Assembly (NCBI GenBank): GCA_036844565.1
Contig: DAIUFP010000006.1
Coordinates: forward strand, 93,433 to 157,432
Source of the DNA: Gemmatimonadaceae bacterium
GTDB lineage: Bacteria; Gemmatimonadota; Gemmatimonadetes; Gemmatimonadales; Gemmatimonadaceae
Reading direction: 5' to 3'
Length of the DNA stretch: 64,000 nucleotides
Each line of letters opens with the position of its first letter. The first letter of the stretch is position 1. The notes beneath the pieces were generated by a model that was given only the letters and a program-made list of their open reading frames with translations, did not search any database and was not told the DNA's origin. This document shows positions 43,195-64,000 of this stretch, piece by piece. The position numbers and the translations under genes were made by a program.

Positions 43195-43222
43195 GCCGTC
43201 CGCTCGACGCGACTCCGTCGCG

Positions 43223-44316: not shown

Positions 44317-44438
44317 CGTAAACTATCCGTCGATCGCGTTGGAATGCAGTCGCTCGATCGTACGTAGTGTGCCGTCGGCTCCAAGAGTTCCCGCCGCACA
44401 CAACGCACAGGCGCGCCTAGGGTCTTGCGCTTGATCCA

Positions 44439-45085: not shown

Positions 45086-45174
45086 ACCAACCTCCATAGT
45101 ATTACTCTGATAAGTAATACTATCGGAGATCTCGCCTTCCCGCAAGCGCGTCCAGCAGTTGCAGGCAGCGTAGT

Positions 45175-45665
45175 TCACATACTCACGCGTCCATCAAATC
45201 GGTACAAGCCCACCAGCGCCTCAGCCACATGAACGGACCCGATCGTAGCGTTTTGTTCAAGATCGGCAATGGTTCTCGCCACACGCAACACGCGGTGAAA
45301 CGCACGCGCCGAGAGATGAAGACGCTCTCCAGCACTGGCCAGCAGTTCGCGCGCACGCGATTCGCGTGCTCCGTGCGCCTCGAGCCAGCGCCCCGGTGCA
45401 CGTGCGTTGCACGTATCGTCGCTGGAGTAGCGCGCGCGTTGTCGAGTGCGGGCGAGCTGCACGCGTTCGCGAACGGCCGGTGACCCTTCGCCGGTGCAGC
45501 GCTCCGAAAGTTTCGACAACGCGACCGCTGGGACGTGCACGTGGAGATCGATGCGATCGGCGAGAGGGCCCGACAGCCGGCCGCGATACTTCGCGACCTC
45601 CGCTGCGGCGCACACACACGGATGGGAGACGTCGCCCAGGTGACCGCATGGACAGGGGTTTGCGA
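45175..45665 (-). pseudogene. comM: Displaced comM 3' fragment (Mg-chelatase C-terminal domain only), probably the original chromosomal 3' end
   Basis: NPCPCGHLGDVSHPCVCAAAEVAKYRGRLSGPLADRIDLHV...RVLRVARTIADLEQNATIGSVHVAEAL parallels the last ~165 aa of the intact comM. It starts abruptly at the NPCxCG motif. Confidence 0.85.
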
Positions 45666-46080
45666 TACCCCTACCCTGGCCTTTGCTAAACCCAAGCGCC
45701 ACTATCCTTTAGCCCTCCTTACACTAGGCGATCATCTGCTGAAAAGAAGACTCGATTTGGGACATACTCGGAAGTTTGCTGCAAGCCTGATCGGTGTTGA
45801 TCCGGAGTCCCTGAAGAACTGGGAGGACGCGAGGACCGAGCCGGCAGTCGGGTTTTTCCCTCGCCTGATCTCCTATCTGGGCTACAATCCGTTGCCGGAG
45901 GCGGAAAACAGAGGGAGCCAAATTCGGCGAGAACGGATCAGCCGCGGCCTTTCCCGGAAGGCGCTTGCTGACTCAGTAGGAGTTGATGAAGGGACAGTTA
46001 AACGAATGGAGGAAGACGTCAAGGGAATGGCAAGGCGCGCGATTCGCGCAATTTGCCATGAACTCGATGTCGAGATGTAG
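45622..46080 (+). CDS. Double-HTH XRE-family regulator at the island end (copy 1)
   Basis: Two HTH units: LGDHLLKRRLDLGHTRKFAASLIGVDPESLKNWEDARTEP and IRRERISRGLSRKALADSVGVDEGTVKRME. The nearest in-frame ATG (45622) lies inside the comM relic, so the start is uncertain. Confidence 0.6.
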   Translation: MGDVAQVTAWTGVCDTPTLAFAKPKRHYPLALLTLGDHLLKRRLDLGHTRKFAASLIGVDPESLKNWEDARTEPAVGFFPRLISYLGYNPLPEAENRGSQIRRERISRGLSRKALADSVGVDEGTVKRMEEDVKGMARRAIRAICHELDVEM

Positions 46081-46097
46081 AGAAACAAATGCACTCA

Positions 46098-46135
46098 GGG
46101 CCGACGACCACTCCAATGTCGTCGGCTCTTCTTTT
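46098..46135 (+). terminator. Rho-independent terminator after XRE copy 1
   Basis: gggccgacgac-loop-gtcgtcggc followed by tcttctttt. Confidence 0.65.
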
Positions 46136-47040
46136 GTCCGGAACTGCGTTCGAAGGATGACGCCGCGATGACGTCTTCGGATATCCTGCTCCCATGATTC
46201 CGACCAAGCCTGTGTCACTCGGCGCGCGACTCGATTGGCTCATCGGTCAAACCGGCCTAGTGAAATCCTCCAGACCAGTAAACGTCGCGCGTGACCTTCG
46301 GCTCTCGCCGCCGAACCATTGCCAGCGCCCAGTTGGTTGAGCGAGCGCGGCGATCCGGACGGACGCATAGCAGAGCGGCTCAAGCTCTACTCCTCGGGAT
46401 GGGATATTAATAATGCCGAACGGTTGGCTACGCATGGTACTGACAGCAGAGGAACTGTTCTGCCTTGCGTTTGGCCCAGACTTCCGTGAATAGGCGCTTG
46501 GTCATGAAGGAAAGTCGTCCCAGCACTCCTCACATTCAAGCTGTCTCCATTGATCAGCAGCCGAATCAACCCAGTCGGCGAGGACCTGACCGAAGACCTA
46601 GGCAGGGACCAAGTGTTGTGCGCTGGACGTGTCATATGGCGTGGGGAAGCTCCCCGTGTGCATGACGTTGAGCCCCAAGCGCTAAATGAACCGGCCGGCC
46701 GCGGAGAGGAGCGCACAGTGGTGCCTGAGTGTCGTGACCTGCTGAGGCGAAGGCCTTGTTGGCTGAGATTCATGCAGTGGAAGGCGTGTCTTGGTACAGC
46801 TCCCTGAACCTTGCACCGCACCTCATGACGGTTGTGCTTCGAATCTCTGCGCATGGTACGGTGCTGGACCGGTTGGCCGACGCCTGGATGAGCGACAGCT
46901 GGTCCGCATGGAGCCGAAGGTCGTCCGGTCGCGTAAATGGCGTGGCACACTCGACGGAAGCGCAACGGGGGACGCGGGCGGTGGCCTGACGTGACGGGAG
47001 CGGAGGGGTCATCACCGCGCCGTACTGGTCCGACGTTGTA

Positions 47041-49521
47041 TCACACAGAAAGGAGGGCCTCCTCCAGACGCTTCGTGGGAGCCGCTCGAACCACGGAGAG
47101 TACCATGGCGCCCAGCGACTCGGACGTGAACGGCTTCAAGAGAATGTGCGGTACGGCGTGTGTCGTGGCCACCAGTGTCAGCGTATCGTCGATGTACCCG
47201 GACATGAACACGAACGGCACCCCGGGAAACCGTGCTCCCACGTGGCGCGCCACTTCCGCCCCACCCCCCTTCGGCATCACCACATCCGTGAGCACCAGAT
47301 GCAGCGCGTCGATCGTGGCGCAGACAGCAACTGCCTGCACAGGATCTGCCGCCTCGATGACGTCGAACCCGAGGGCGCGAATGATCCGTGCAGCGACGGC
47401 ACGCACCTGCGGCTCGTCCTCCACGAGCAGCACAGCGCCTCGCGCCTGCATCCACCGGTCGCTTGGCGCCGTGGGCTGCGCCTCCGATCGCGCCGCGAAA
47501 GGCGCCTCGTGAGCGAGAAGCGGAAGGTACAGGGATACCGTTGTCCCTGCTCCCGGCGCGCTATCAATCGCGACGTAGCCGCCCGATTGCTTGACGAAGC
47601 CGAATACCATGGAGAGGCCCAATCCGGTTCCTCTGCCCACGCCTTTCGTGGTGAAGAACGGCTCGAAGGCATGCCGCACCGTGTCTTCATCCATTCCGAC
47701 GCCGGAATCGCGCACGCTGATGCAGCAATGTTCCCCCTCGCGCGATCCGGCGTGTGCCGCGACGAAGTGGTTGTCCAGGCGCACTTCGGCCACTTCGATG
47801 TGCAACGGCCCACCGTCCGGCATCGCATCTTTCGCGTTCACGGCGAGATTGATGATCGCCTGCTCGAGTTGCGCCGAATCGACGAGCACGGCATGCCCTT
47901 GGGTGGCCGGCACGGCGATGCTCATGCTGATGCTCTCACCCACCAGTCGCCGCAACAGCGAGCCGAGGCCACTCACGATCGCCCCCGCGTCGTTCAACGT
48001 TGGCTCAAGGACCTGCCGTCTGCTGAAGGCGAGCAGCTGTTTCGTCAGCTCAGCTCCGCGGAGCGCCGCGTGCCGAATCTCCACGAGATCCGCCCGCGCG
48101 CCGTCCGACTCATGCAGTGACTCAAGGGCGAACTCCGACGACACGAGAATCACGGAGAGCAGATTATTGAAGTCATGCGCGACGCCTCCTGCCAGGCGCC
48201 CTATCGCCTCCATTTTCTGTACCTGCCGGAATTCCGTCTCGAGGCGGCGCCGATCCGTGATGTCGAGCATGAACCCGTGCAGCTCGACGAGCTCGTGGTG
48301 GGCGCCGTACGATGCAACGACGTTTGCCTGCACGTGAACGGAGCTTCCGTCAACGCGTCGTAGTTCCAGCTCCAGACCAACGAGGCGCCCGCGCTCCGCG
48401 AGCTGTTCGATCATCGACACATGAACCGCGGCGTCGGGAAAAAGCGACGCGGTCGTCTTCGCGCACGCGTGGTGAATGGACGCATAGCCGAACAACGCCA
48501 CGTATTGCTCGTTGCAGGCGAGCAGCCGCCCATTGGGGGTGGACACAAAATTCGCCGCCGGGCTTTCCGCGAAGATGTGCGCGTAGCGCGACTCGCTCAC
48601 TTCCAGTTCCTGGGTCTGACTCGTGACTCGTCGGCGCAGGGTGAATATCCACGCTGCGACCATGGCGATGAGGACGACGATCACCAGTCCCGAGAACAGC
48701 ACTCCCAGCTTCTGGCGCACTGTCAATCCCAGGACTCTTACGTCCGACGGCAGGCGAGGCAGGAGCATATAGACCGGCACGCCGGCAAAATCCTTTCGCA
48801 GGCTGACGACCCCTGTGACGATCAGATGGTCGCCTTCACTAAACGGTCGAAGATCCACGACGGGTTGCCCGTACGCGTCCTCGAAGAGCGTGATTGCCTC
48901 TGGAGCAGCGGTCCCTTTGTGTGCTCTCGTCGTGCGATCGTCGCGCTCTGAAATCAACCCGAGACTTGGATCTCCCATGGACATCCACGGTTTCTTAACC
49001 TTCGCGCGCAACACCACGAGGTCGCCGATGTGCGCCGGCACGTCGCCGAACGCAATCGGCAGAGGTGCTGGCGAGCGACGGGGGCCCGGGACGACGCGAA
49101 CTCGGGCATCGTATAACTCCGGCATGCCGCGATACGTAGTCGCCACTCCTGTCGCCTCAATACTGTCACCGACGGAGAGCGCCGTGTTCCCGTTCCGATT
49201 AAACAGAAGGCGTCCGCCGGCGGGCGTTTGCACATACACCCGCAAGGCCGCGCTCGAGAGCGTTCCGGTGCCGATGGTGACGCGCCCGGCAATGGATACG
49301 GTGTCGGCTGTGGAGATGTCTTGAGCCGGTTGGCGGACGGCAGCGCGCTGTGCAGACGAGCCAGCCGGCGGTGAACCCGGACGCTGAGCGGAGGCGATTT
49401 GCACCATGAACGCGAGCAGCGCTAGACAACGGCATGAGGCCGCGCTGCCGATCTGGATGAGCAAGGTTTTGTCCAATGCCTGGTGATGAGCACGTCGGCG
49501 TCGACCACTCGCTGGTGGCAT
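47041..49521 (-). CDS. Hybrid sensor histidine kinase / response regulator
   Basis: Periplasmic region and TM segment, PAS-like region, HisKA (GGVAHDFNNLL), HATPase (GRGTGLGLSMV) and a C-terminal REC domain. The ORF extends to 49599. Confidence 0.85.
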   Translation of the reverse strand: MPPASGRRRRAHHQALDKTLLIQIGSAASCRCLALLAFMVQIASAQRPGSPPAGSSAQRAAVRQPAQDISTADTVSIAGRVTIGTGTLSSAALRVYVQTPAGGRLLFNRNGNTALSVGDSIEATGVATTYRGMPELYDARVRVVPGPRRSPAPLPIAFGDVPAHIGDLVVLRAKVKKPWMSMGDPSLGLISERDDRTTRAHKGTAAPEAITLFEDAYGQPVVDLRPFSEGDHLIVTGVVSLRKDFAGVPVYMLLPRLPSDVRVLGLTVRQKLGVLFSGLVIVVLIAMVAAWIFTLRRRVTSQTQELEVSESRYAHIFAESPAANFVSTPNGRLLACNEQYVALFGYASIHHACAKTTASLFPDAAVHVSMIEQLAERGRLVGLELELRRVDGSSVHVQANVVASYGAHHELVELHGFMLDITDRRRLETEFRQVQKMEAIGRLAGGVAHDFNNLLSVILVSSEFALESLHESDGARADLVEIRHAALRGAELTKQLLAFSRRQVLEPTLNDAGAIVSGLGSLLRRLVGESISMSIAVPATQGHAVLVDSAQLEQAIINLAVNAKDAMPDGGPLHIEVAEVRLDNHFVAAHAGSREGEHCCISVRDSGVGMDEDTVRHAFEPFFTTKGVGRGTGLGLSMVFGFVKQSGGYVAIDSAPGAGTTVSLYLPLLAHEAPFAARSEAQPTAPSDRWMQARGAVLLVEDEPQVRAVAARIIRALGFDVIEAADPVQAVAVCATIDALHLVLTDVVMPKGGGAEVARHVGARFPGVPFVFMSGYIDDTLTLVATTHAVPHILLKPFTSESLGAMVLSVVRAAPTKRLEEALLSV

Positions 49522-49879
49522 TCGCTGCAACCTTCGAGTATCGACCACCTGTCTGCAAGAGTTGAGGCACCTTTGCGTGACAACCCCACTTGCCCGCATA
49601 TTCCGTGAGTTATCGATTGATCAGGAGGCTACCGAATCCGTGCTGGGAGCCTTTACCATTGTTACTGTGTGCGGTAACGCGCGGTGCGTCTGTGTCAAAA
49701 CTCACTGAGCCACGAGTAAAGGCGCACGGCATGTAACCGCGTTCGCTGACACACGCGCACAAAATGATCGTATGAGAGATCACGCTTAGCGTCGTTCACC
49801 CGCCATGAACCAATTGCAAAATCCCATCGGCGGCGTGATGACCGATCCATCCATCGCGTGGCGATATCTAGTTTTCACG

Positions 49880-50050
49880 CACTCTCGACGCGCTGGCGCA
49901 TAGCTGCTGGCGCATCACCTGGCGCGCGCGACGCCAGACTCGCAAGTGCAATGGCCGGAACGTAAACATGAAGGTCAATCTGCTCAGCGAGCGGGCCCGA
50001 AAGCCGACCGCGATACTTCACAATCCCTCCGCCGCAGCACACTTGGGCCG
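49880..50050 (-). pseudogene. comM: Short third comM relic
   Basis: IVKYRGRLSGPLAEQIDLHVYVPAIALASLASRAPGDAPAAMRQRVE matches only the first ~50 aa of the repeated comM 3' unit. Confidence 0.6.
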
Positions 50051-50189
50051 TCCCTGGCTCGATATTGGGCGAGGCTAGGGGTCGGAGCATGCGCGATATT
50101 TCCCTGTCGCCGTATCGAGTATGCGCGCCATCTGCGTCGCTGACTTCGCCCAACTACGGCGGCCGCTCACGATTTGCATGCGCTGTCTC

Positions 50190-50697
50190 TCACGGCCGTG
50201 TCGGGACGGCGTCGCACTGCTCTTCAACCCGTGGGCGATAACCCAGCGCCTCCGCCACGTGATCGGACCCAATCGTGGCGCTCTGCTCCAAATCAGCAAT
50301 GGTTCTCGCCACGCGCAAGACTCGGTGGTACGCGCGCGCCGATAGACGGAGGCGTTCCCCAGCACCGGTAAGCAGACCGCGCGCGGACGACTCAAGCTCG
50401 CCGTGAATCTCCAGCCAGCGTCCCGGTGCGCGTGCGTTGCAGGCGCTTCCGCCGGAGTACCGTGCGCGCTGCCGAACGCGTGCGAGCTGCACGCGTTCGC
50501 GAATGATCGCAGACTCTTCCCCGGTGCAGCACTGCGAGAGTTTCGCCAGTGCAACCGGCGGCACATGAACGTGCAGATCGATGCGATCCGCCATTGGCCC
50601 CGAGAGCCGAGACCTATACTTCACGATCTCGGCTGCCGCGCACACACATGGCCGCGAGGGGTCTCCGAGATACCCACAGATGCAGGGGTGTGATACC
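50190..50697 (-). pseudogene. comM: Displaced comM 3' fragment (copy 2)
   Basis: HPCICGYLGDPSRPCVCAAAEIVKYRSRLSGPMADRIDLHV...HVAEALGYRPRV. I counted 18 differences in about 134 aligned aa against intact comM. Confidence 0.85.
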
Positions 50698-51178
50698 TTT
50701 TTGCGATACCCCTACCCTGACCTTTCCTAAACCCAAGCGCCACTATCCTTTAGCCCTACTTGCACTGGGCGATCACTTGCTGAAAAGAAGGCTCGACTTG
50801 GGGCAAACTCGGAAGTTTGCAGCAAGCTTGATCGGCGTTGATCCGGAGTCCCTGAAGAACTGGGAGGGCGGAAAGACCGAGCCGGCAGTTGGGTTCTACC
50901 CTCGCCTGATCTCCTATCTTGGCTACAATCCGTTGCCGGAGGCAGAGAGCAGAGGCCAGCGAATTCGTAGGAAGCGGGTCAGCCGCGGTATGTCCCGGAA
51001 GGCGGCTGCTGACGCCGCAGGTGTTGACGAAGCGACGATCAAACGAATGGAGGAAGACGTAAAGGGAATGGCCAACCGCGCTGTACGCGCGATTTGTCGG
51101 CTCCTTGATGTCGAGATGTTACGATGCTACGAAGGCCGGCGATCAAAAATGATCGTCGGCCTTTTCTCGTTGACTTGA
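50648..51178 (+). CDS. Double-HTH XRE-family regulator at the island end (copy 2)
   Basis: Near-identical to copy 1 from CDTPTL onward. The natural stop after LDVEM is lost, so the frame reads through the terminator. The start is uncertain. Confidence 0.55.
   Translation: MAARGLRDTHRCRGVIPFCDTPTLTFPKPKRHYPLALLALGDHLLKRRLDLGQTRKFAASLIGVDPESLKNWEGGKTEPAVGFYPRLISYLGYNPLPEAESRGQRIRRKRVSRGMSRKAAADAAGVDEATIKRMEEDVKGMANRAVRAICRLLDVEMLRCYEGRRSKMIVGLFSLT
51134..51170 (+). terminator. Rho-independent terminator after XRE copy 2
   Basis: ggccggcgatc-aaaaat-gatcgtcggcc followed by ttttctcgtt. Confidence 0.6.
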
Positions 51179-51383
51179 CCATGGTACCCATCGCTACTGC
51201 ACGCCTCCCTCGAAATGAAAAGGCAGCATCAAGCGGGAATAGTCGTCCCATAACACCTCCCAAACGTACGTTCTCTATTGGCCAATGACGATCCCGCCCA
51301 GGTCCGCGAAGACCTGCCTGAAGACCTGGCCAACGACCCGGGGTGGGAACCCTCGAATCAAACGCTTATGTACACATCCGCGT

Positions 51384-52457
51384 TCACGGCGACGGCTTGA
51401 ACACCCGGAGTATGGGACGCCCGCTCACATTCTCGAGCGGGAGATATACGAAATGCGTACGAGGATCGACAGCCACGGTGTGCGCGTGCGGGATGCGCAG
51501 TTCACCGACTCCACGCAGCGTGGTGCCGTCGAGCCAGAACGCAGAGAGCGCCCCTGACTCCGCAGCCACGTACAGCCGGCGCCATGTGGCATCCCATGCG
51601 AGCACGTCCGGACCGTCGGGAAGCTTGAGCGTCTGGATGGTCTTCATGCTGCGGAGATCGACGACCTGCAGGACAGCGTTTCCCTCGCTCGTGATGAACG
51701 CAAGCCGTCCCTCCTCGTCGAACGTGAAGCCATGCGGGCCATCGGATCCCGGCAGAGCGTAGCGCTGCACGATCCGTTCGCTCACAGGATCGATTGCGAC
51801 CATCTGGTTCTTCGTCTGCACGGCAACCAGGATGCAGTGCGACACCGAGTCGTACTGCGTGTTGCCGGCCTCGCCGCCAAGCGGGATAGTCGAGCGCTTC
51901 GCGCCCGTCTTCGCGTCGATCACCACGTCCGCGTCGCCTCTCTCATCCGATACAAATACCTTGTCAACCTCGGGCGCGAACGCGATACCGTCCGGAAACA
52001 CGATGTCGCCGACGCGTGAGGTGACCTTGAGCGTCCGGTCGTCGATGATCGCCACTTCGTGCGCGCCGGCGGCTGACACGTACACCTGGTGATGCGAGGG
52101 AACAGCCCGAACGCCGGTGGCGCGCGGCAGATCCATGATCTCGGTGACGACCTTGCTGCTGTCCGCATCGAAGACGATCATACGCCCGGCGTTCATGTGA
52201 TTCATGTAAATCCGGCCGGTCGCGGGGTCGACGCTCTGATAGTCGAACCGGTTGGCTGGTCCGGGGAGCGACACTTCCCGTACGAGTGTGAGCTCTGGCT
52301 TAGGAGCCGATTGCTGCGCGCGTGCCGTCGCGCGCCAGGAGGTGGGCGTCATCGACGCCGCCACGGCATAGCACGCTGGCGCAGCGGATTGTGCCACGGC
52401 GACAAGCGGCAGCAGGCAACAACCGACGATCGATGAGGCAGTGCGGTAGCGCGTCAT
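51384..52457 (-). CDS. YncE-like / YVTN beta-propeller repeat protein, secreted
   Basis: Signal peptide and repeated ...V.V.D..T.KV... blades. Confidence 0.7.
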   Translation of the reverse strand: MTRYRTASSIVGCCLLPLVAVAQSAAPACYAVAASMTPTSWRATARAQQSAPKPELTLVREVSLPGPANRFDYQSVDPATGRIYMNHMNAGRMIVFDADSSKVVTEIMDLPRATGVRAVPSHHQVYVSAAGAHEVAIIDDRTLKVTSRVGDIVFPDGIAFAPEVDKVFVSDERGDADVVIDAKTGAKRSTIPLGGEAGNTQYDSVSHCILVAVQTKNQMVAIDPVSERIVQRYALPGSDGPHGFTFDEEGRLAFITSEGNAVLQVVDLRSMKTIQTLKLPDGPDVLAWDATWRRLYVAAESGALSAFWLDGTTLRGVGELRIPHAHTVAVDPRTHFVYLPLENVSGRPILRVFKPSP

Positions 52458-53107
52458 GGTTCGAGGGGGCTTGCGGTGAGGTCATCAAACAGTGTGTACG
52501 AGTCGGCTTTCGTCCACACGCCGACCTTCCCCGGCGCCGTGAACCGCGAGTCGTGCGCGTCCATCAGCTTCTTTCCGTTGAAATACACGTCGATGTGGTC
52601 GCCTCGCATGTCGGCACGGAGGGAGTGCCAAACGCCAGACGGGACCTTCACAGCGACGCACTTCGCCTCGACTCGACGACCGTTTTGCACGTAATACCAG
52701 CAGACGTTGTCTTCGAGGGCATTCGCTCGTGTGAGGTAGTAGTTGTTCTCGTCCACGTATCGCCAGACGATGCCGCACGCACGATCGACGCGGCCGCCGA
52801 CCGGTTTGCAGCGGACCGAAACGCTGACGTCGCCGAACGACGGCGAGTTCGCCGCCGCAACGGGAAAGCGGTAGTCGGTGCCATCACTGTCCTCCTGCGC
52901 GAGCACATTCGGTCCGCTCGGCGCGTCTGCGACTGCGCGTACCACCCAGTGGCCGGTGCGACCAGATCCGGTGCGACCGAGTGAGAATCCCGGTGGAGCA
53001 GTTCCCGCGGCGGCGCTGTCAAAATTCCAGGTCTTTGGCGCTTGGTCGACGCCAAATGAAAGAGCGGCAACACAAAGCCAGATTGGCGACAGTGGGACGG
53101 ATCTCAT
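52454..53107 (-). CDS. Secreted LamG / DUF1080-like (concanavalin-like) domain protein
   Basis: W.F...G..P.GF..., CGIVWRYVDENNYYLTRANALEDN and GKVGVWTKADSYTLFDDL. Confidence 0.55.
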   Translation of the reverse strand: MRSVPLSPIWLCVAALSFGVDQAPKTWNFDSAAAGTAPPGFSLGRTGSGRTGHWVVRAVADAPSGPNVLAQEDSDGTDYRFPVAAANSPSFGDVSVSVRCKPVGGRVDRACGIVWRYVDENNYYLTRANALEDNVCWYYVQNGRRVEAKCVAVKVPSGVWHSLRADMRGDHIDVYFNGKKLMDAHDSRFTAPGKVGVWTKADSYTLFDDLTASPLEP

Positions 53108-53123
53108 AGCGGCTCTCCGACGC

Positions 53124-55385: not shown

Positions 55386-55574
55386 AACTGTATCGTCAGA
55401 CTAAGCCAAGATCAATCCCTGAAACCATGGGCAGAGCCGGGCCATTTCGACCCGTCCATCCGGGGAGCCACTAGACACAACATCACAAGTGAACCATCAT
55501 TCAGGCTTGTCGCAGGGGCAGCGCAGTGCGCCGCTCCAAAGTGTCCCTCAATCATCGACTGCTCGGAGACAACG

Positions 55575-56090
55575 ATGCGCACCATGTCATGGATGGTCCG
55601 AGGCGCCGTATTCGGCGCGCTACTGGTATCCGGCACTCCGGTCCTGGGTCAGGAGTCGGCAAAGGCGCAGACCAAACTTGCAACCGCGCTACGCGGCAAA
55701 CACATCGCGCTGGCAACTGGCATTGAGACGGCGGCGGCCAACGGCAAACCTATTTCGGCGAAGTACGAGTACGAAGGTGGGAAGCTGTCGCTATCGGTGT
55801 ACACCGAAAAGAGCGGACAATTTTCGGAGGTGGTTGTAAACCACCACACCGGCAAGGTAGAGAAGACCGAGAAGATCACTGAAGGCGACGACCTCAAGGC
55901 AGCTCAGTCGCAGAGCGCCGCCGCAGCGCAAGCCAAGTCGTCGCTCGCTTCCGCACTGTCAAAGGCCCTCTCCGCGAACAAGGGATACAGCGGGGTGAGT
56001 GCAACGGCGACACTCAAGAACGGCCAGCCAACCGCCGAGATCACGCTGATCAAGGGATCGGAGTTCAAGATGGTTACGGAACCGTTCTGA
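55575..56090 (+). CDS. Secreted PepSY-domain protein
   Basis: Signal peptide and two PepSY-like units (...GKPISAKYEYEGGKLSLSVYT..., ...ATLKNGQPTAEITLIKG). Confidence 0.6.
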   Translation: MRTMSWMVRGAVFGALLVSGTPVLGQESAKAQTKLATALRGKHIALATGIETAAANGKPISAKYEYEGGKLSLSVYTEKSGQFSEVVVNHHTGKVEKTEKITEGDDLKAAQSQSAAAAQAKSSLASALSKALSANKGYSGVSATATLKNGQPTAEITLIKGSEFKMVTEPF

Positions 56091-56369
56091 AAGGCCACGC
56101 ATGGAAGGCGTGCGCTGCCGCGGTAGGCGTCTTTCTTCCGGTCTACGTCGTTGGCGTGTTTGTCGCGCGGTGGTTTCTTCGACTGGCCAATCGCGATGTC
56201 CACGACGCGCGGTTTACGGCGCCCGGAAGAGTCGGCGTATGGACAAAGGCGGATTCGCATACGCTGTTCGATGATCTCACGGCCGCCCCTCTTAAACCAT
56301 GATCCGCTACTACGTTGTCTCCACGATCGCCCCGTAACTCGTCCGCAGCCCAGTCACTCGAGGTGTACC

Positions 56370-57251
56370 ATGATGTCGATGTCCCGCTACCTTCTCGCCG
56401 CATTGCTGACCGTCGTATCGCCGTGCGCGTCCAACGCGCAGTCCAACCTCGGCGCCGCGTGGGACTCGGTCGGCCGTGTCCTGCAGGCACCGGGCACGCT
56501 CACCGGAGACTACCGTCGCTACAACTTGCCGCGGCGCGACATCACGCTGCACATGGGTGACGTGACCGTGGCGCCGTCGCTGGCGTTGGGCGCCTGGGCC
56601 GGCTTTGGCGGAACGCCCCCGGACGCCATGATGATGGGCGATCTCGTGCTGACCAACGCCGAGCTCAAGCCCGTTCTGGCGGAGTTCGTGCGCCAGCGAC
56701 TCGACGTGACCGCGATCCACAATCATCTCAGCGGGGAAGAGCCGCGAATCACCTACGTCCACTTCCACGGCCAAGGCCGCGCGATCGACCTTGCCACGCG
56801 CCTCGACCATGTCCTCGCCCTCACGGCGACGCCACGCCCAGTCGCCGCCTCCGCGCCGAGCCCAGTGACGATCGACACGGCGGCGGTTTTCCGTGCATTG
56901 GGCGTGTCCGGGAAGGCACAGGGTGGCGTCGCGCAGCTCTCTTTTATCCTAGTGCCGGGGCGCGTGACGATGCACGGGCGCACACTTGTGCCGGCACTCG
57001 GCTACGGCAGCCCGGTCAACGTCCAAATGGTTGACTCGTCGCGCGCCGTCGCAACAGGCGACTTCGCGGTGTTAGGTACAAAGGTCCGCGGCGTGCTCGA
57101 CGCATTGGCGACGCATGGCATCCTCGCCACCGCGCTCCATAGCCACCTGATCGGCGAGCAGCCCTCGCTCTACTACATCCACTTCTGGGCCGATGGCGGA
57201 CTCACCGACCTGCTGCGCGGGCTTCGCGCCGCGATCGACGCCGCGCGCTGA
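56370..57251 (+). CDS. DUF1259 (LppY/LpqO-like) secreted protein
   Basis: Two repeats with GDLVLTNAELKPVLAEFVRQRLDVTAIHNHL and GDFAVLGTKVRGVLDALATHGILATALHSHL. Confidence 0.7.
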   Translation: MMSMSRYLLAALLTVVSPCASNAQSNLGAAWDSVGRVLQAPGTLTGDYRRYNLPRRDITLHMGDVTVAPSLALGAWAGFGGTPPDAMMMGDLVLTNAELKPVLAEFVRQRLDVTAIHNHLSGEEPRITYVHFHGQGRAIDLATRLDHVLALTATPRPVAASAPSPVTIDTAAVFRALGVSGKAQGGVAQLSFILVPGRVTMHGRTLVPALGYGSPVNVQMVDSSRAVATGDFAVLGTKVRGVLDALATHGILATALHSHLIGEQPSLYYIHFWADGGLTDLLRGLRAAIDAAR

Positions 57252-57407
57252 GCCACCTGGCGCGGGGAGATCTTCTACCAGCGCTGACTGAGGTTTGCCC
57301 CTGGCATACGCTTGAGGAGAGTCCATACGTGCCACTTGGGGGCTCGCAGCGTGCAGATGGCATTCTCCACAGACCGGGGGGATCTCGGCGAAATGTCAAA
57401 CACCCGA

Positions 57408-58372
57408 TCACGCCCTCGACGCGCGTGCGCGCGCCACGACATACGATCCGAACACCAGCACACCCGCGAGCGCCTGCGCCACCAAGGTCTCCACCGTGGG
57501 AAACACGGAGAACCAGAGTCCAACCCAGGACGGCGTCCATCGAGAGAGTCCAGGCACCACAGTCGTGGGAATCCAATGCGCAAGCTGCATCTCCTGCGCT
57601 TCTTCCCCAACTATGACGAGCAGCACGACGCCGAGCAGGACGCCCGTGGTGATCAGCATCTTCCTGTATGGCAGCCGGTGTTGGCCCACGAAGGTAAGCA
57701 CGCCGACGATCGCGGTGAGCGCGGCTCCGAGCAATACTCCGCCAAACACGACTCTACCGCCGAGTTGAAGGCGGTAGCTCTGAAGAAAGAGCACTACCTC
57801 GAACCCCTCCCGGTACAAAGAGGTGAACCCTAGCAAGGCGAGCCCCAATGCGACGCGACTACGCACTCGACCGTGGTCGTTCGCGTGAGCAAACGGCGCT
57901 TTCGCCGCGTGTGAAAGCCGATCCAGCCGGTCCAATAGACTTTGTGAAAGAACCAATTCATCACGACCAGCAGGACGATCACGGCGAGCAAGCCGGTTGC
58001 GGCTTGGACCGCCAGCGCCGGGACGCTCTGCCCCAACTCCTCGACCACGCTGACGACGAGAAACCACGTGGCGATCGACGCGACCAATCCCGCGATAGCG
58101 CCGGCTGTGACCGGACGGCGATGCACGCGCTGCTCACCGGTCATGCTCGCCGTGATCGCCGCGAGCACGAGAATGCATTCGAGTCCCTCGCGAAACACGA
58201 GAACGCCGACGTCAACGACTGCGACGCGGCCTCTCGCATGCGTCGCGATGGGATCGGGCGCCCCGTGCGCGGTGAGGCCGGCAAAAATGAGCGCCGCGAT
58301 GACTGCGCCCGCCGCGGCGATCGTTGCTGCGATGATGAGGATACGGACGACCCGCCAGTCGCGTGTTGCCAT
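57408..58372 (-). pseudogene. FTR1/EfeU-family iron permease split by a frameshift
   Basis: The first REGLE motif (VFREGLECILV) is in ORF 57830..58417. The second (YREGFEVVLF) is in ORF 57408..58067, in another frame. The junction is near 57860-57930. Confidence 0.7.
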
Positions 58373-58413
58373 CGTGGCTAGCGGATCAGACGATCCTGGC
58401 GAGGCAGAATGAA

Positions 58414-60618
58414 TCACCAGAACGACGCACGTACTCCGAGATAGAGGCTGCGACCCATCCCGGGTAGAATGCCGGGGCCCGGATACTCAGGGGTGCGCTT
58501 CGTGAAGTATCGCCTATCCGTCAGGTTGTTGATGCCGAAGGTCAGTTGCCGGTCACCGGCGAGCCGAAGCGCGAACGACCAGTCGAGCACCGTGTATGCC
58601 GGGATCAGGCCGCCAGCTGCGTCCTCGGTGGGTTGTACACTGTTGTTGGCGTCGCCGAATGATTCCGACGTTTGGCTCACCTGGAGCGTGTTCGAGAATC
58701 GGCCGACGGCGTACGTCGCGCCGAACCGCGACAGCACACGCGGGGCCCCCTCGACGCGGTTGCCCTTGAACTCGCCAGTCACGTAGCGGGCGTCGACGAA
58801 ACCAAACGACGAGAAGAGATCGAGCGACCCAGCGCGGGTCGGCAATCCGAGGAGCGGGAACGGATCGAGCTCGAGATAGCTCTCTACGCCACGGTGCTCG
58901 CTCGATCCGATGTTGCCGACTTCGACGAACTCACCCGACGCATCGGTTCCCGTACGCGTCCCTATCCGATCGCCGTACCACAGATAGAACGCGCCCACAT
59001 CGAACTTGAATACATCCCCAGCCGTACCGCGCCAACCCAGGTCGGCGTTGCCGCCGCGCGATGAGTGAAGGTCGGGGCTGATACGAGCGATGCTGCCGAA
59101 CGGAGTGAATGACGAGTACAGGATCGGCCGATACGCTTGTGACACGTTCGCGTACAGCTCGGTCGACAAGCCGGTGATGTAGCTTACGCCGACGCCCGCC
59201 AACGGGTAGGCGTAGCTGCGTGGCGTGAACGACGCCGTCGCGTCGCTGTACCCACTGATGGTCGAGCGCACCGATTCCAGCCGTATGCCCGGCACCACGC
59301 TGAGGCGATCGGTCAGGTGAATGAGCTCTTCGGCGAACCCGGCCACGTTCGACGTGCCGAGCCGCAGCGCGGTCTCCCACGTGCCTTCGGTCAGGTTCAG
59401 GTCGAAATTGTCGCCGACGGATCCGGTGCCGCCCTCGAAGCGGCGCGCAGAGACATTGGAGAGCCTGATGCCCGTGGACAGCGTCGCCCGATGCGCATCC
59501 AGCGCGTGGTCGACCCGCAGGCGCGACTCGAGCGTGAGGGTCTTGAACGTTTCGTTTTCGACCTCTCGGGGAATCTGCTGGCCCGTCTCGGGATCGATGA
59601 CGTCAGGCGAGCCCGGGCCGCCGTCTTCGTTTCGCCACACCAGCGCGCGCGAGCCGTCGACATACGACAGTGTGTTCTCGAACCGTACCGAGCGGGAGAA
59701 GTCGTACTGGGCGCGGAGCGCCGCGACATTCCATGGGCTGCTGAGCCAGTTCCTGGAGCGGAACGATGCGCGCGGGTCGGCGACGAATGCGGAATCATCG
59801 AGACCGCCGGCCATGTGAATACGATTGCGGAACACGGTGTACTCGCCGCTGATCGTCAACCGTGACGACGGGCGATATGTCACGCGTCCGAATGCGGCGA
59901 GCTGCCGGAAATCAGAATTCGGACGCCACCCATCCTCACGCCGGCCATGCACGAACCCGTAGTAGGTCCACTTGTCGGTCCCACCGGCGACCGTGTTGAA
60001 CGAGTTGACCAACCCAAAGCTCCCGCCGCTGAGCGCCGACGTGAAGCGAGGCGCCGTGTTCGGTTGACCATCGCGAATGACGTAGTCGATCACGCCGCCG
60101 AACTGCGGACCGAACGCCAGCGACGCGGCACCGCGCACGACGTCGATGCGCTCGAGCGCTTCCGACGGCGGCGTGTAGTACGTCTCGGGATAGCCGAACA
60201 GGTCCGCCGCGATGTTGACACCGTTCTGGCGGACGTTCATCTCCACCGACTGCGTCGGATCGAGCCCGCGGAACGCGACGCCGTTGGACGGGAAACCGGC
60301 GCCCTCGGTCTCCGAGAAGTGCGCGCCGGGAATGCGGCCGAGGATCTGGCGCTCGACATCCTGCGCGACATTTGCGCGGAGCGAATCCATGACGATCACC
60401 TCGGTCTTCTTGCCGGCGAAGATGGCATTCTGCTGAATGGCCGGTAGATGTCCAATGACGTGGAGCGGTCGGCTTGCGGTCACCACGATCGCCGGAAGCG
60501 CCGCGGTGTCGCGCCGGAACGTGGTGTCTGGTTGTTGGGCTGGTGTGAGGCGCGCGCCGATCGCCAGAAACGCGGCGGCGACAGTGGCTGTTGTACGGAT
60601 CAAGTTGCAGTTCGGCAT
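58414..60618 (-). CDS. TonB-dependent receptor
   Basis: Signal peptide, plug (IVVTASRP...GAHFSETEGAGFPSNGVAFRGLD), beta-barrel repeats and C-terminal ...YLGVRASFW. The ORF extends to 61152. Confidence 0.9.
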   Translation of the reverse strand: MPNCNLIRTTATVAAAFLAIGARLTPAQQPDTTFRRDTAALPAIVVTASRPLHVIGHLPAIQQNAIFAGKKTEVIVMDSLRANVAQDVERQILGRIPGAHFSETEGAGFPSNGVAFRGLDPTQSVEMNVRQNGVNIAADLFGYPETYYTPPSEALERIDVVRGAASLAFGPQFGGVIDYVIRDGQPNTAPRFTSALSGGSFGLVNSFNTVAGGTDKWTYYGFVHGRREDGWRPNSDFRQLAAFGRVTYRPSSRLTISGEYTVFRNRIHMAGGLDDSAFVADPRASFRSRNWLSSPWNVAALRAQYDFSRSVRFENTLSYVDGSRALVWRNEDGGPGSPDVIDPETGQQIPREVENETFKTLTLESRLRVDHALDAHRATLSTGIRLSNVSARRFEGGTGSVGDNFDLNLTEGTWETALRLGTSNVAGFAEELIHLTDRLSVVPGIRLESVRSTISGYSDATASFTPRSYAYPLAGVGVSYITGLSTELYANVSQAYRPILYSSFTPFGSIARISPDLHSSRGGNADLGWRGTAGDVFKFDVGAFYLWYGDRIGTRTGTDASGEFVEVGNIGSSEHRGVESYLELDPFPLLGLPTRAGSLDLFSSFGFVDARYVTGEFKGNRVEGAPRVLSRFGATYAVGRFSNTLQVSQTSESFGDANNSVQPTEDAAGGLIPAYTVLDWSFALRLAGDRQLTFGINNLTDRRYFTKRTPEYPGPGILPGMGRSLYLGVRASFW

Positions 60619-60742
60619 GAGATCGACGGGAAGCGCCCTGAACAGGCGAGAAGGCCTTGGGAGCCACGGACAAACATTCCCGCCCAAGGCCCGGTTGGTG
60701 TGCGAATGATGCCCGACCTCCGCCTGCGCCGCACTTCGGCAA

Positions 60743-61561
60743 TTGTACCGAGTCCGGGCCCGGCCTCCAAGCCAATCCCCGACCAATTGTGCGGTGAACA
60801 CCACTTTACGGGTGAATCCCGATAGTATATATCGGATTAACCCTATCGGACCGATCCCGGTCATTGACGACCCTCGAGCCCTCGACGTGGACGACGCAAC
60901 CGACACCAGCGCACGCGAGATCACGTTCACCAGGCCTTCGGGCTTGGCGAACGAGGTCTCAATCCTCGTCGTCGCCGAGCACGCGCTCGTCCGTGCGGGC
61001 CTGCGGGCGGTGCTGGATAGTACCTCTGGGTTAGTGGTCGTGGCCGAGGCAGCGGACATCGGTTCGGCTGCGCGGGTTGCCACGCGCGTTCGTCCCGACG
61101 CGATCTTGCTCGACGCGCCGCCGGCCGACAGCGGCGCGCAATCGGCGCTCATCGCGTTACGGCGCGCCGTTCCGGAGAGCTGCGTGCTGTGTCTTGCGCG
61201 GACGACTCCGCATGGCTTCGGCGAGCCTCAGTGCGTGTCGCCCGAGACCGGCATCGCGGAATTCTGCTCGGCGCTGGGATCGATGCTCGGCGATCGATGT
61301 GGGGCCTGCCTGCTGCGACCGCAATGCCCCGTGCAGAGCATCGCAGTGGCTCTCAGCCGCCGCGAGCGACAGGTCGCGGTGCGCGTCGCACGCGGGATGT
61401 CGAGCAAACAGATCGCCGCGGCGCTCGGGATCAAGCTCCGAACGGTGAACACATACCGCGAAGCGTTGGCGCGCAAGATTGGTGCGTCGTCGCCGGCCGT
61501 GGTGACGCGGTATGTGCTCGAGCACGGGCTGAACTCGCTCGTCGAAGATCTCATTCGGTAA
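60743..61561 (+). CDS. LuxR/NarL-type response regulator with an atypical Cys-rich linker
   Basis: REC-like ILVVAEHALVRAGL...AILLDAPP and the LuxR HTH LSRRERQVAVRVARGMSSKQIAAALGIKLRTVNTYR. The true start is probably internal (GTG 60887 or TTG 60944). Confidence 0.7.
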   Translation: MYRVRARPPSQSPTNCAVNTTLRVNPDSIYRINPIGPIPVIDDPRALDVDDATDTSAREITFTRPSGLANEVSILVVAEHALVRAGLRAVLDSTSGLVVVAEAADIGSAARVATRVRPDAILLDAPPADSGAQSALIALRRAVPESCVLCLARTTPHGFGEPQCVSPETGIAEFCSALGSMLGDRCGACLLRPQCPVQSIAVALSRRERQVAVRVARGMSSKQIAAALGIKLRTVNTYREALARKIGASSPAVVTRYVLEHGLNSLVEDLIR

Positions 61562-61741
61562 GAAGCGTTTGCATCGCATCGGTTGTGTGCCTCCCCCGCA
61601 AACCATTGGCACGCACGTGCGCCGCGAGGCCACTGATAACAGGTAAGGCGCCGAGCGAACGGATGGACCTCTCCGTGTCTCAGCGTGACACGAGATAGGA
61701 GCCGCCAGATTCGCTGCATCCTTGCAGTTGACTGCGATCTG

Positions 61742-63286
61742 TCACGCGCCTGTCCGGCTGCCGCCATCGTGCTCCGCCACTCGCGGGCGATAGCCGAGCG
61801 CCTCAGCTACATGAGCGGACCCAATCGTGTTGCTCTGCTCCAGATCGGCAATGGTTCTCGCTACCCGTAACACTCGGTGATACGCGCGCGCCGATAGATG
61901 TAGGCGTTCTCCAGCGCTGGTGAGCAGCCCACGCGCGAAGGATTCGAGTTCACCGTGCACCTCGAGCCAGCGCCCTGGTGCGCGTGCGTTGCAAGCACCG
62001 TCGTTGGAGTAGCGTGCGCGTTGTCGAGCGCGCGCGAGCTGTACGCGCTCCCGAATGGCCGCTGACCCATCCCCAGTGCAGCGCTGCGAGAGCCTTGCCA
62101 GCGCGACCGGTGGGACGTTGACGTGCAAGTCGATGCGGTCAGCGAGAGGGCCGCTGAGGCGCGCACGATATTTCACGATCTCCGCTGTCGCACAGGTGCA
62201 CGCTTTTGTCGGATCGCCAGCGTGTCCGCAGAGACACGGGTTCATCGCCGCCGCGAGCGCGAATCGCGCCGGGAAGCGCAGCGAAGCCGACGCCCGCGCA
62301 ATCGTGACGTGTCCATCTTCCATCGGCTGCCGGAGCGATTCGAGCACCGAGCGCGGGAACTCCAGCAGTTCATCGAGGAACAGCACCCCGTGATGTGCAA
62401 GACTCACTTCTCCAGGCCGAGGCGACGATCCACCCCCGACGAGACCGGGCGTGGAGACGGAGTGGTGCGGCGCACGAAAGGGGCGCCGAGTCACCGCGCC
62501 CGCGGCCGGATCGAGCATGCCGGCGACCGAGTGAATGGCGGTCACTTCGATCGCTTCGGCATCGGTGAGCGCGGGGAGGATGGTCGGTAGGCGGCGAGCG
62601 AGCATCGTCTTGCCTGCGCCGGGCGGCCCCACGAGGAGCAGCCCATGACTTCCCGCGGCGGCGATCGCGAGCGCGCGTTTCGCACCCTCCTGCCCGGCGA
62701 CGTCCGACAGGTCGAGCAGATCATCCACTCGCGCACGCTCGGCACTCACACGTGGCTCGGGAAGCTTTCCGCGCTTGATCCATATAACGAGCTCTCCAAG
62801 TGTCGACGGCGCAGCGAGGCGCAGCCCACGAACCAATGCCGCCTCTCTCACGTTGGAAGGTGGCAGGATCAAGGTGGTTTCACCGCCACGTGCGCTCGCA
62901 GCCACCTGTCGCGCAATCGAGAGCGCGCCCCGCACCGGGCGAATCGACCCATCGAGTCCGAGCTCGCCCACTGCGACGCAGCGTTCGACCGACTCCGCCG
63001 GGATCACACCCGTGCCGACGAGTACGCCGAGTGCGATGGGCAGATCGAACCCGGTTCCCTCTTTACGTCTATCCGCTGGCGCAAGGTTTACAGTTATTCG
63101 TCGCGGCGGTACCGTGAACCCCGCATTGATCAACGCAGCCCCGACCCGCTCGCGACTTTCCTTCACGGCACTCGCGGCGAGACCGACGATGAACCATTGC
63201 GGGAGGCCGAGCGCGACGTCGACCTCAACGGTGACGTCGTAGGCGTCGATTCCAAGGACCGCGGCGGAGCGAATGGCTGCAAGCAT
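61742..63286 (-). CDS. comM: YifB/ComM-family Mg-chelatase-like AAA+ ATPase (intact)
   Basis: N-terminal Lon-like domain, Walker A GPPGAGKTM, VLFLDEL and the C-terminal Mg_chelatase_C region. Confidence 0.9.
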   Translation of the reverse strand: MLAAIRSAAVLGIDAYDVTVEVDVALGLPQWFIVGLAASAVKESRERVGAALINAGFTVPPRRITVNLAPADRRKEGTGFDLPIALGVLVGTGVIPAESVERCVAVGELGLDGSIRPVRGALSIARQVAASARGGETTLILPPSNVREAALVRGLRLAAPSTLGELVIWIKRGKLPEPRVSAERARVDDLLDLSDVAGQEGAKRALAIAAAGSHGLLLVGPPGAGKTMLARRLPTILPALTDAEAIEVTAIHSVAGMLDPAAGAVTRRPFRAPHHSVSTPGLVGGGSSPRPGEVSLAHHGVLFLDELLEFPRSVLESLRQPMEDGHVTIARASASLRFPARFALAAAMNPCLCGHAGDPTKACTCATAEIVKYRARLSGPLADRIDLHVNVPPVALARLSQRCTGDGSAAIRERVQLARARQRARYSNDGACNARAPGRWLEVHGELESFARGLLTSAGERLHLSARAYHRVLRVARTIADLEQSNTIGSAHVAEALGYRPRVAEHDGGSRTGA

Positions 63287-63369: not shown

Positions 63370-63936
63370 CTACGGCAGCCAAGTCGTCAGCGAAGCCGCC
63401 GGCTTACGTTCTTTCGCCGCGGGGACGACCATCGGCTCACCGACGTTGATTACCGCGACAATCCGCTCGCCTTCCCCCACGCCGACCGCGGCGCACGCGG
63501 CCGGATCCTGCATCACTGCGCCCGTCTTGATGTGGGTACCGAGACCCAGTGCGACGGCGGCGATCGAGATGTTCTGGATCGCCATCATCGTCGCGGACAG
63601 GTCTTCCTCACGGATTTCGGGATTCGCGTCTTCCGCCACCGCGACCGCGATCATCAGCGGAAGCGCCATGTGCTCGTCGGCGACCTTGTTCCGCATCGTG
63701 TCCGCGGCGGCGGCATCTTCGATCTTCTTCGCCTTGCGGTTCCCCAACGCGAGCCCGTATGCGCGTCGCGCCTCGGGGCCCATCACGTAGAAGCGCCACG
63801 GCTGCGTGAGCCGATGGTTCGGAGCGGTGATGGCTGCATCGAGTAGCGTCTCGATCTCCGCGCGCGACACCTCGCGCGGGTTGAACTGGCGGATTGAACG
63901 ACGCCCATGAAGAGCGTCAAGTGCGGTGGTGGTCAT
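63370..63936 (-). CDS. Nitroreductase-family protein
   Basis: RRSIRQFNPREVSRAEIETLLDAAITAPNHRLTQPWRF. Confidence 0.85.
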   Translation of the reverse strand: MTTTALDALHGRRSIRQFNPREVSRAEIETLLDAAITAPNHRLTQPWRFYVMGPEARRAYGLALGNRKAKKIEDAAAADTMRNKVADEHMALPLMIAVAVAEDANPEIREEDLSATMMAIQNISIAAVALGLGTHIKTGAVMQDPAACAAVGVGEGERIVAVINVGEPMVVPAAKERKPAASLTTWLP

Positions 63937-64000
63937 GCAGCGCATGGTAGGCCGTCGGTCGCACCCGCGCCAGTCGCGTACGCGATCGACTCGGCGCGAG

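Follow-up and report, generated by a model that had tools for sequence, protein, structure and literature searches.

A putative stack of integrase-less islands at the 3′ end of comM in a Gemmatimonadaceae bacterium, and a candidate serine recombinase family for its assembly

We analysed a 64,000-nucleotide stretch of DNA from a Gemmatimonadaceae bacterium (assembly GCA_036844565.1, contig DAIUFP010000006.1, positions 93,433 to 157,432 of the forward strand), referred to below as the window; coordinates are those of the window unless another contig is named. Within it, the gene comM is separated from the neighbouring vapBC genes by an interval of 17 kb. We consider it reasonably probable that this interval is a stack of at least two, and probably three, islands lacking an integrase, which would have entered one after the other at the Asn-Pro-Cys codons of comM. 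The original prediction, made from the window sequence, had proposed that successive elements each bring a replacement comM 3′ unit, recombine at the NPCxCG codons and push the previous gene end downstream. This scheme is supported by four lines of evidence: empty sites in related genomes, a break in similarity at the Asn-Pro-Cys codons, the ratio of nonsynonymous to synonymous substitution rates (dN/dS) among the copies, and a pair of contigs (L043 and L041) carrying a related element alone and followed by a later island.

Displaced copies of the comM 3′ end and the empty site

Intact comM (61742–63286, minus strand) encodes 514 amino acids with the Pfam domains ChlI, Mg_chelatase and Mg_chelatase_C. 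Its last 165 codons (61742–62239, minus strand), counted like all relic lengths from the Pro codon of the motif (N/H)PCxCG, represent the current working end, a putative surrogate segment of the adjoining island, island A. Further copies of this 3′ part lie downstream, all in the orientation of comM. Relic 2 (50190–50690, minus strand), which is preceded by a stop codon, reads HPCICGY... through 165 open codons to a stop. Relic 1 (45175–45660, minus strand) reads NPCPCGH... through 160 open codons to a stop that abuts vapB, thus occupying the position of the original gene end. A short fragment (49878–50039, minus strand) covers 54 codons, corresponding to comM residues ~367–420 (tblastn E=1e-8). 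The alignments thereby bear out the early description of a repeat of the last ~165 comM codons in two places with an additional ~50-codon piece, of long relics that share a start at the (N/H)PCxCG codons and read without interruption up to a stop, and of C-termini that diverge after HVAEAL.

At the nucleotide level, comM 61770–62194 aligns with 50218–50642 without gaps over 425 nt at 78.6% identity, and comM shares ~81% identity with 45215–45614; relic 1 also retains a Pfam Mg_chelatase_C match (E=9e-28). Identities and substitution rates among the three long copies were computed over 140 codons. Relic 2 and relic 1 are 82% and 77% identical to comM in amino acids, close to the 18 differences in ~134 residues first counted for relic 2 and the larger number for relic 1. 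The three copies share 75–77% of their nucleotides with one another and 61–71% with copies elsewhere. Their differences are mostly synonymous, with a dN/dS of 0.10–0.18 at a synonymous divergence (dS) of 0.8–1.3, and the copies are therefore not in-situ duplicates that decayed. Nearly all of the divergence thus arose under purifying selection, presumably while each copy served as a working gene end. The first ~12 residues hinted at 3′ cassette alleles common to different contigs and exchanged between the working and the relic position; this idea was rejected because the copies of the window are closest to each other over the 140 codons.

The short fragment lies directly beyond the stop of relic 2 and is present in two further contigs, L036 and L037. 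It therefore implies three or more events and the near-complete deletion of one unit. A 40-residue C-terminal mini-relic of comM found right after intact comM in L001 (12137–12256 of that contig) is analogous to this fragment, and a sign of deleted units there too. The argument from synonymous divergence also applies to the Gemmatimonadales locus L006 (one of the 36 junction loci described below), where the relic with its ORF6N gene and the resident comM 3′ end with its ORF6N gene encode near-identical proteins at 81% nucleotide identity.

A collapse of the repeats on reassembly had been named as grounds for abandoning the proposal. L036, a contig from a Joint Genome Institute (JGI) sample other than that of the window, is 100% identical to it over 47430–61178, a segment that includes the histidine kinase gene of island B, the fragment, relic 2 with both of its junctions, the adjacent XRE gene (XRE2) and island A. 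Because an independent sample spans the relic 2 junctions at 100%, the array is not an assembly artefact. L004, in turn, is 99.98% identical over 35622–49756.

The empty state of the comM–vapBC interval, which the original prediction expected in relatives, is present in four contigs (L131–L134), where nitroreductase, comM and vapB follow each other with the flanks of the window and none of the intervening 17 kb. In the window these flanks are the nitroreductase gene upstream of comM (63370–63945, minus strand), syntenic at the empty sites and 100% identical to that of L131, and the chromosomal pair of vapB (MazE-like) and vapC (PIN) (44439–45178, minus strand), assigned by Pfam and by synteny with L131–L134. 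L132–L134 continue past vapB with vapC, an NAD-synthase-like gene and LigT, as in the window, with the stop codon of comM overlapping the start of vapB in L132 and L134. Identity to the comM protein of the window is 86% for L132 and L133 and 84% for L134. L131 (contig DAITQC010000044.1), the nearest relative in the comM comparison, stops 186 nt past comM, already within vapB.

Comparison with L131 locates the break. The two sequences are 100% identical through the nitroreductase gene and comM to ...ATGAACCCGTGTC, and from there on identity falls to 61–74%; the last letters shared before the drop are ...AACCCGTGTC, and the end of identity can also be read as ...GCGGCGATGAACCCGTGTC. The relics, on the other side, begin to resemble comM at (A)CCCNTG, which sets the upstream bound of the exchange. 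Since the start of relic resemblance and the end of L131 identity bound it from both sides, the exchange is confined to 9 nt (62233–62241, minus strand), namely the codons Asn-Pro-Cys (A-ACCCGTGTC). Accordingly, the 5′ part of comM is 98.3% identical to that of L131 in nucleotides and the 3′ part 68.6%. No such contrast exists among the empty-site genes themselves, for which pairwise 5′ and 3′ identities in L131, L132 and L134 are 0.84 and 0.83, 0.78 and 0.77, and 0.77 and 0.76; the comM of the window scores 0.77–0.98 against the same three in its 5′ part, and the 3′ copies 0.62–0.69. Judged from these alignments, comM is a mosaic, with a native 5′ part down to the Asn-Pro-Cys codons and a 3′ part from island A.

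Two features of L131 complicate this picture. A lone 100-nt patch of 86% identity (L131 10487–10587) interrupts the otherwise identical 5′ part of comM, and the vapB flank (L131 11548–11734 against 44983–45178) is only 88% identical, in contrast to the 100% of the upstream flank. The patch and the 88% flank could be recombination tracts or could reflect a chimeric L131 contig. As for the contrast between the flanks, the array may have been imported together with its downstream flank by homologous exchange, the upstream region may recently have been replaced up to the end of homology, or L131 may be a chimeric contig of a metagenome-assembled genome. Relic 1, moreover, is ~66% identical in nucleotides to the native 3′ end of L131, no closer than the other copies. 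We therefore dropped the idea that it is the native end of this lineage: the earlier assignment of 45175–45665 as the original end holds for its position next to vapB and lacks support for its descent.

XRE genes at the junctions and their recombinase relatives

The repeated unit does not end with comM sequence. It runs ~470 nt beyond each relic into a divergently transcribed gene of the XRE type, XRE2 (50690–51178, plus strand) at the distal end of island A and XRE1 (approximately 45661–46080, plus strand) at the distal end of island B. Each encodes two helix-turn-helix stretches matched by the Pfam families HTH_3 and HTH_31 (E=1e-11 to 1e-14), with both families matching both stretches of XRE2. 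Between the two units, the XRE segment is ~79–90% identical in nucleotides, depending on the segment compared, and the relic segment ~75–79%. The GTG start of XRE2 shares 1 nt with the first relic codon, and its first ~66 nt form the conserved arm of the junction on the element side, which includes ...GGCAAAAAGG... At XRE1, an 11-nt junction deletion has taken the usual start codon together with part of this arm.

Searches with the XRE alignment as seed yielded 31 loci in genomes and 80 in metagenomes, to which some loci from exact-protein look-ups were added, and each locus was classed by what lies to the left of its XRE match. In 36 loci an XRE gene abuts a comM 3′ relic on the opposite strand, starting at comM residue ~347–353; in 38 the XRE match is the C-terminal domain of a longer recombinase open reading frame (ORF); 30 have neither a comM relic nor a recombinase to the left of XRE, and in 16 the contig end is too near for classing. 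The pairing of an XRE gene with a comM 3′ unit, which had been proposed as a signature to look for elsewhere, thus recurs in five phyla: Gemmatimonadota, Verrucomicrobiota, Acidobacteriota, Pseudomonadota and Bacteroidota, with Gemmatimonadales, Opitutae, Terracidiphilus, Bryobacterales, Burkholderiales and Bacteroidetes among the named hosts. The islands behind these junctions can be very small (a single S41 peptidase gene in L001, 3.9 kb from XRE to comM in L006) and their cargo is unrelated from case to case, XRE and the comM 3′ copy being the only shared parts. In agreement, a Pfam scan of 51 island-side proteins gave comM as the only recurrent family among the 25 families shown; single-protein families beyond these were not inspected.

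In these relatives the XRE protein is typically 143 amino acids long, with the N-terminus MIPFCDTPTL..., and its start lies at most 12 nt from the junction beside each relic. The XRE-side arm is conserved in nucleotides across phyla as ...GGCAAAAAGGCAACG-N6-|TGYCC, where the bar marks the junction, and encodes the N-terminal motif (A)LPFC(H/D). It resembles the comM-side arm (GGCGATGAAYCCN) over only ~13 nt, and the exchange falls within 9 nt. The XRE genes have a dN/dS of ~0.2, indicating purifying selection. In Gemmatimonadota, the first 22 XRE codons are in addition poorer in synonymous changes (for example 2 in 17.8 sites, against 32.8 in 82.3 for the rest of the gene), which fits a second constraint acting on that DNA. 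Stand-alone XRE proteins form a large family (150 cluster representatives at E<=1e-30). The XRE profile also matches extended forms: the 4162-residue protein P0160 has 21 XRE-profile matches, and several proteins of 700–1000 residues have 7–11, which makes them long arrays of double helix-turn-helix units.

The same N-terminal motif was found next to other genes. In L009 (7435–7785, Longimicrobiaceae) the XRE gene lies directly against the final ~100 codons of a cytochrome P450 gene (Pfam p450, model positions 359–454 of 462), and in L018 (9801–10031) against a C-terminus resembling endonuclease III (Nth-like), the latter a weak match. Both junctions suggest sister systems with other target genes. 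In L019 (794–4979), a complete Bryobacterales chromosome, large ORFs lie just past the comM relic, one of them resembling, by eye, the large subunit of a phage terminase; the stack there may thus include a prophage.

The recombinase fusions provide a candidate for the enzyme. They are proteins of ~680 residues with the Pfam domains Resolvase, Recombinase and Zn_ribbon_recom followed by two HTH_3 stretches, and belong to a family of more than 770 members at E<=1e-20, of which those with a named source are mostly Bryobacteraceae and Solibacter. Stand-alone XRE proteins are 40–48% identical to recombinase residues ~526–682 (tblastn E=1e-19 to 1e-40), and the LPxxHV motif at the XRE start falls inside this alignment. 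Four viral contigs carry the recombinase-fused form alone, with no free XRE-only element.

The family is also physically tied to comM: the fetched DNA of nine or more distinct recombinase loci includes comM sequence, mostly in one relative orientation. The most informative are L043 and L041. In L043, a recombinase gene is followed by Fic, PRiA4 and 78-residue protein genes, and then by intact comM. L041 has the same genes, followed by the comM 3′ part alone, a decayed XRE-like frame and unrelated genes. The two contigs are 99.6% identical up to the Asn-Pro-Cys codons and diverge there. They are a before-and-after pair in which a recombinase element has been displaced by a later island. The comparison of single- and double-island states called for by the original prediction was thus obtained for this related recombinase element. 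In L043 the intact recombinase gene lies ~3.9 kb from the comM-side junction, this being the only recombinase element with that end mapped.

In the Acidobacteria contigs L087 and L117, recombinase elements truncate comM after ...NPCPC, and a shared arm (AGACATYAACT...) follows. No new comM end is supplied in either (L087 14602–15690, L117 7310–7641), and the adjoining cargo encodes proteins of 971 and 1142 residues, respectively. L043, L087 and L117, all of them Acidobacteria, carry recombinase elements at this same codon; none was found for the organism of the window. Exceptions in orientation are L013 (3897–7233) and L107 (5634–7748), where a 5′-truncated recombinase gene stands head-to-head with the comM start. 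On L130, a viral IMG/VR contig with the recombinase, a ~45-nt mimic of comM ...FMLVAAMNPCP lies outside any comM gene (13491–13559) and may be the recombination site of the element itself; a similar short comM mimic was seen beside the junction in L041.

One recombinase, P0090, occurs on contigs of several samples. In L040–L044 a type I-C CRISPR-Cas operon (Cas3, Cas5d, Csd1, Cas7, Cas4, Cas1) lies 2–3 kb to the left of its gene. In L040 the recombinase–Fic module is followed by melibiase and rhamnosidase genes and not by comM, and because these neighbours differ, the module occurs in more than one context.

Two further ideas about the recombinase were dropped. That its gene might be split by its own integration site, into a catalytic portion next to comM and an XRE portion at the far end, is contradicted by the comM-side end, which is a surrogate comM 3′ copy on the other strand, by the genes beside the truncated comM of L087 and L117, which are unrelated and on the comM strand, and by the fusion gene lying whole inside the integrated L043 element. 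A weak resemblance of recombinase residues 467–525 to the antisense of relic 2 was put down to an antisense frame that stays open across a conserved comM motif, and not to homology.

Cargo of the two islands

Island A carries its cargo at 51179–61741, defined from Pfam scans and the gene calls of L036 and L037. It comprises genes for a YncE-like beta-propeller, a 3-keto-disaccharide-hydrolase-like protein, ChrA (split), ChrB, a PepSY protein, a DUF1529/DUF1259 protein, an FTR1-like protein (split), a TonB-dependent receptor and a LuxR-type regulator. ChrA (53124–54303) and the FTR1-like iron permease (57408–58417) each extend over two overlapping frames; FTR1 is called as two genes in L037, and ChrA only as a 326-residue part in L036 and L037. 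As both contigs are 100% identical to the window, the splits are real in the sequence, each gene being either a pseudogene or a genuine two-part gene.

The cargo of island B (46081–49874) consists of a hybrid histidine kinase gene (47041–49599, minus strand) and ~1 kb without a recognisable gene, with the same layout in L004. This segment between XRE1 and the kinase (46081–47040) has a lower G+C content (0.57–0.58). None of its ORFs matches a Pfam family, no Rfam family matches it either, and it may be a decayed gene. More broadly, no Rfam family matched anywhere in window 43000–64000.

Assembly of the stack, rival explanations and known systems

The arrangement described above leads to a model in which an island is variable cargo between two fixed ends. 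The comM-side end would be a surrogate for the last ~165 comM codons, fused in frame to the resident 5′ part so that comM is kept whole, and the far end a gene for an XRE protein of ~143 residues with two helix-turn-helix domains, whose first codons would double as the element-side arm of the site. Each arrival would push the previous 3′ end out as an open, headless relic beside the XRE gene of the incoming island. By association, the enzyme would be an XRE-tailed large serine recombinase acting in trans, with its gene at another place in the genome or on a co-resident element. Because the surrogate arm is itself comM sequence, with a product that should again be target-like, integration would remake a usable target at comM and new islands would always enter next to it. 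The far-end product would likewise resemble an element site, and excision of one or several units would leave comM using the next relic. Island B is probably fixed by now, owing to the 11-nt deletion at the XRE1 junction. The free XRE protein could regulate the island or bind the site.

Several points weigh against this account. Neither the window nor any of the 36 XRE–relic loci yielded a serine recombinase, as judged with a profile of the N-terminal 540 residues run on six-frame ORFs of all loci, with up to 10 kb of DNA fetched on each side of each XRE–relic junction; a recombinase hidden among the island genes of relatives was thereby rejected (0 of 36). The full-length fusions that can be placed taxonomically are from Acidobacteria, and the window is from Gemmatimonadota. 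None of the 3′ copies of the window corresponds to the native end in L131, and identity in the vapB flank reaches only 88%, so that the whole array may have come by homologous exchange and not have been built here; a sharp break at the Asn-Pro-Cys codons would also result from a recombination tract that ended at heterology already present. Finally, the reaction permitted to large serine integrases is attP with attB, and repeated entry into a hybrid site would require the surrogate arm to replace the native one.

A bolder version of the model, which we put forward only tentatively, is an integron-like cassette platform at the NPCxCG codons of comM, served by a large serine recombinase in trans. 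Circles with a single site, made of the XRE 5′ end on one arm and the surrogate comM 3′ end on the other, would enter and leave repeatedly, singly or in blocks, with no directionality factor, and the relics would be held as ready comM ends. XRE would be a detached copy of the DNA-binding tail of the recombinase, and in its free form would control or guide the reaction. The P450 and, less certainly, the Nth-like fragments at the same junction suggest that the design has been retargeted to other genes.

Among the alternatives, we regard as rather unlikely, though worth serious attention, a history of one ancient site-specific event followed by gain, stacking and exchange through transformation and RecA-dependent homologous recombination, with no dedicated recombinase at work today. 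The comM 5′ part together with a relic or the vapBC flank would serve as arms, and pairing of a relic with a working end out of register would stack units. Such a history agrees with the absence of a recombinase from every island, and it is the best explanation of the contrast between the flanks, since 100% identity to L131 upstream, 88% downstream and three foreign 3′ copies point to import of a large block. The 86% patch in the comM 5′ part looks like a conversion tract, and the shared start of the relics would simply be inherited. However, copies at 75–77% nucleotide identity are a poor substrate for it. The junction arm conserved in nucleotides over five phyla, and the XRE junctions with P450 and, weakly, Nth-like fragments, indicate instead an active site-specific system with several specificities, and a recombinase family is physically tied to this very codon of comM.

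It is improbable, in our estimate, that the islands are complete serine-recombinase elements, each of which lost its first ~525 codons by deletion and kept an XRE stub at the junction. The correspondence of XRE to recombinase residues ~526–682, LPxxHV at its start included, is what such stubs would show, and partial recombinase genes do exist (L024, L083/L084, L099). Against this, the same end codon and a new start codon would be needed independently in five phyla, stand-alone XRE proteins are numerous, share a conserved N-terminus and evolve under purifying selection, the profile search detected no recombinase remnant in the 36 loci, and the intact gene of L043 lies ~3.9 kb from the comM-side junction. 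It is hardly credible that the comM 3′ region was tandemly duplicated in place and then diverged, or that the array is an artefact of assembly. Direct repeats in one orientation could in principle arise by duplication, and short-read assemblies of the same population did break near the repeats (L004 ends at 49756, L037 starts at 49659), but the dS and dN/dS values of the copies, the unrelated cargo between them, the empty sites in relatives and the independent passage of L036 across the relic 2 junctions all speak against both. Taken globally, we retain serial entry of integrase-less islands at the Asn-Pro-Cys codons as the preferred reading.

The earlier statement that neither island has an integrase or transposase gene is upheld by the Pfam scan of island ORFs, which found no such domain, and by the recombinase profile, which has no match anywhere in the 64-kb window; what has to be added is the homology of XRE to the C-terminal region of serine recombinases. 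The features expected of islands are otherwise present, namely an intact comM with a 3′ part supplied by the element, displaced copies at the far end and empty sites in relatives, and only an integrase of their own was not found by domain search of island ORFs or by the recombinase profile across the window.

Parallels with described systems can be drawn at several levels. Integron arrays have a fixed insertion point, single-site cassettes without a recombinase, the newest cassette nearest the insertion point and an enzyme acting in trans. The likeness is one of logic only: here there are no IntI tyrosine recombinase and no attC hairpins, and the units are multi-gene islands with their own promoters. 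No tyrosine recombinase was found near comM, and the junctions are coding sequence and not attC-like, as judged without attC folding. Another parallel is offered by phage 21 and the element e14 in icd of Escherichia coli, where a diverged 3′ end borne by the element takes over as the functional gene end and the original one comes to lie at the far side. These, however, stand singly, encode a tyrosine integrase of their own and bring ~165 bp of substitute sequence, and we know of no description of integrase-less units stacking on them. In staphylococci, the staphylococcal cassette chromosome elements (SCCmec) and the ccr-less pseudo-SCC composites at rlmH (orfX) are moved by CcrAB serine recombinases. 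They share with the present islands the serine recombinases, the 3′ end of a conserved gene, cassette stacks partly without a recombinase and a target that is kept intact; on the other hand, they use the last few codons with ~15-bp repeats, and lack a long surrogate 3′ segment, an XRE gene at the junction and an XRE tail on the recombinase.

SCC and CcrAB are discussed alongside the ssrA islands of Dehalococcoides with the serine recombinase DsiB, of which 16 carry their own six-gene integration module and which are bounded by a 20-bp repeat (PMC3146451). As here, islands stand in tandem downstream of one essential single-copy gene, with 3′-end repeats, a serine recombinase and an attachment (att) site overlapping a coding region at the island edge; the integration module of their own, the 20-bp repeat and the RNA gene as a target set them apart. 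Tandem accretion is also known from the cis-mobilizable elements (CIMEs) related to ICESt1/ICESt3 of Streptococcus thermophilus, described as decayed integrative and conjugative (ICEs) or integrative and mobilizable elements (IMEs) with tyrosine integrases and short direct repeats (PMC5704250). They too are islands with att sites and no integration genes, arrayed in tandem at a target gene's 3′ end, where a newcomer uses a resident's att site and the integrase comes from another element, and the window has the corresponding tandem units (comM junction, XRE2–relic 2, fragment, XRE1–relic 1) with no integration genes. Unlike CIMEs, the islands studied here have a conserved XRE gene under selection at the junction, a surrogate end of ~500 nt and an association with a serine recombinase, and the integrase-less form is common across phyla. 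Site-specific serine-recombinase IMEs, for their part, are described as disrupting their targets (PMC5704250).

comM itself is a recurrent landing site of islands, as known from AbaR/Tn6022-type Tn7-like transposons and other mobile elements in Acinetobacter (PMC11014353, PMC11472951). Those Tns-bearing transposons interrupt and inactivate comM, whereas here comM is rebuilt and transposition genes are lacking; Pfam scans gave no TnsABC or TniQ genes in the islands, and comM is intact. In the literature searched we found no report of serine recombinases targeting comM, XRE-tailed recombinases not having been searched for specifically. Nor was there a match for the combination of a serine recombinase family with a double-XRE tail at the NPCxCG codons of comM, a surrogate end of ~500 nt and a widespread class of islands with a free copy of the tail, their sole constant gene, on the junction. 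Tandem accretion at gene 3′ ends, with integrase-less units mobilised by the integrase of a relative, is already established.

The consequences follow from this combination. comM has been known as a site that resistance islands destroy, and here it is rebuilt each time. The design recurs in at least five phyla, mostly in uncultured soil bacteria, and the cargo is adaptive, with genes for chromate resistance and iron uptake as well as sensor kinases and peptidases. As the islands encode no recombinase themselves, searches built on finding an integrase beside a repeat would overlook them. The mosaic 3′ end makes comM unreliable for phylogeny and strain typing past codon ~348. The link between XRE and the recombinase C-terminus offers a concrete candidate enzyme together with its sites, and if that recombinase works on ~60 bp of comM, a gene present in most bacteria, it could be of interest as a broad-host integration tool.

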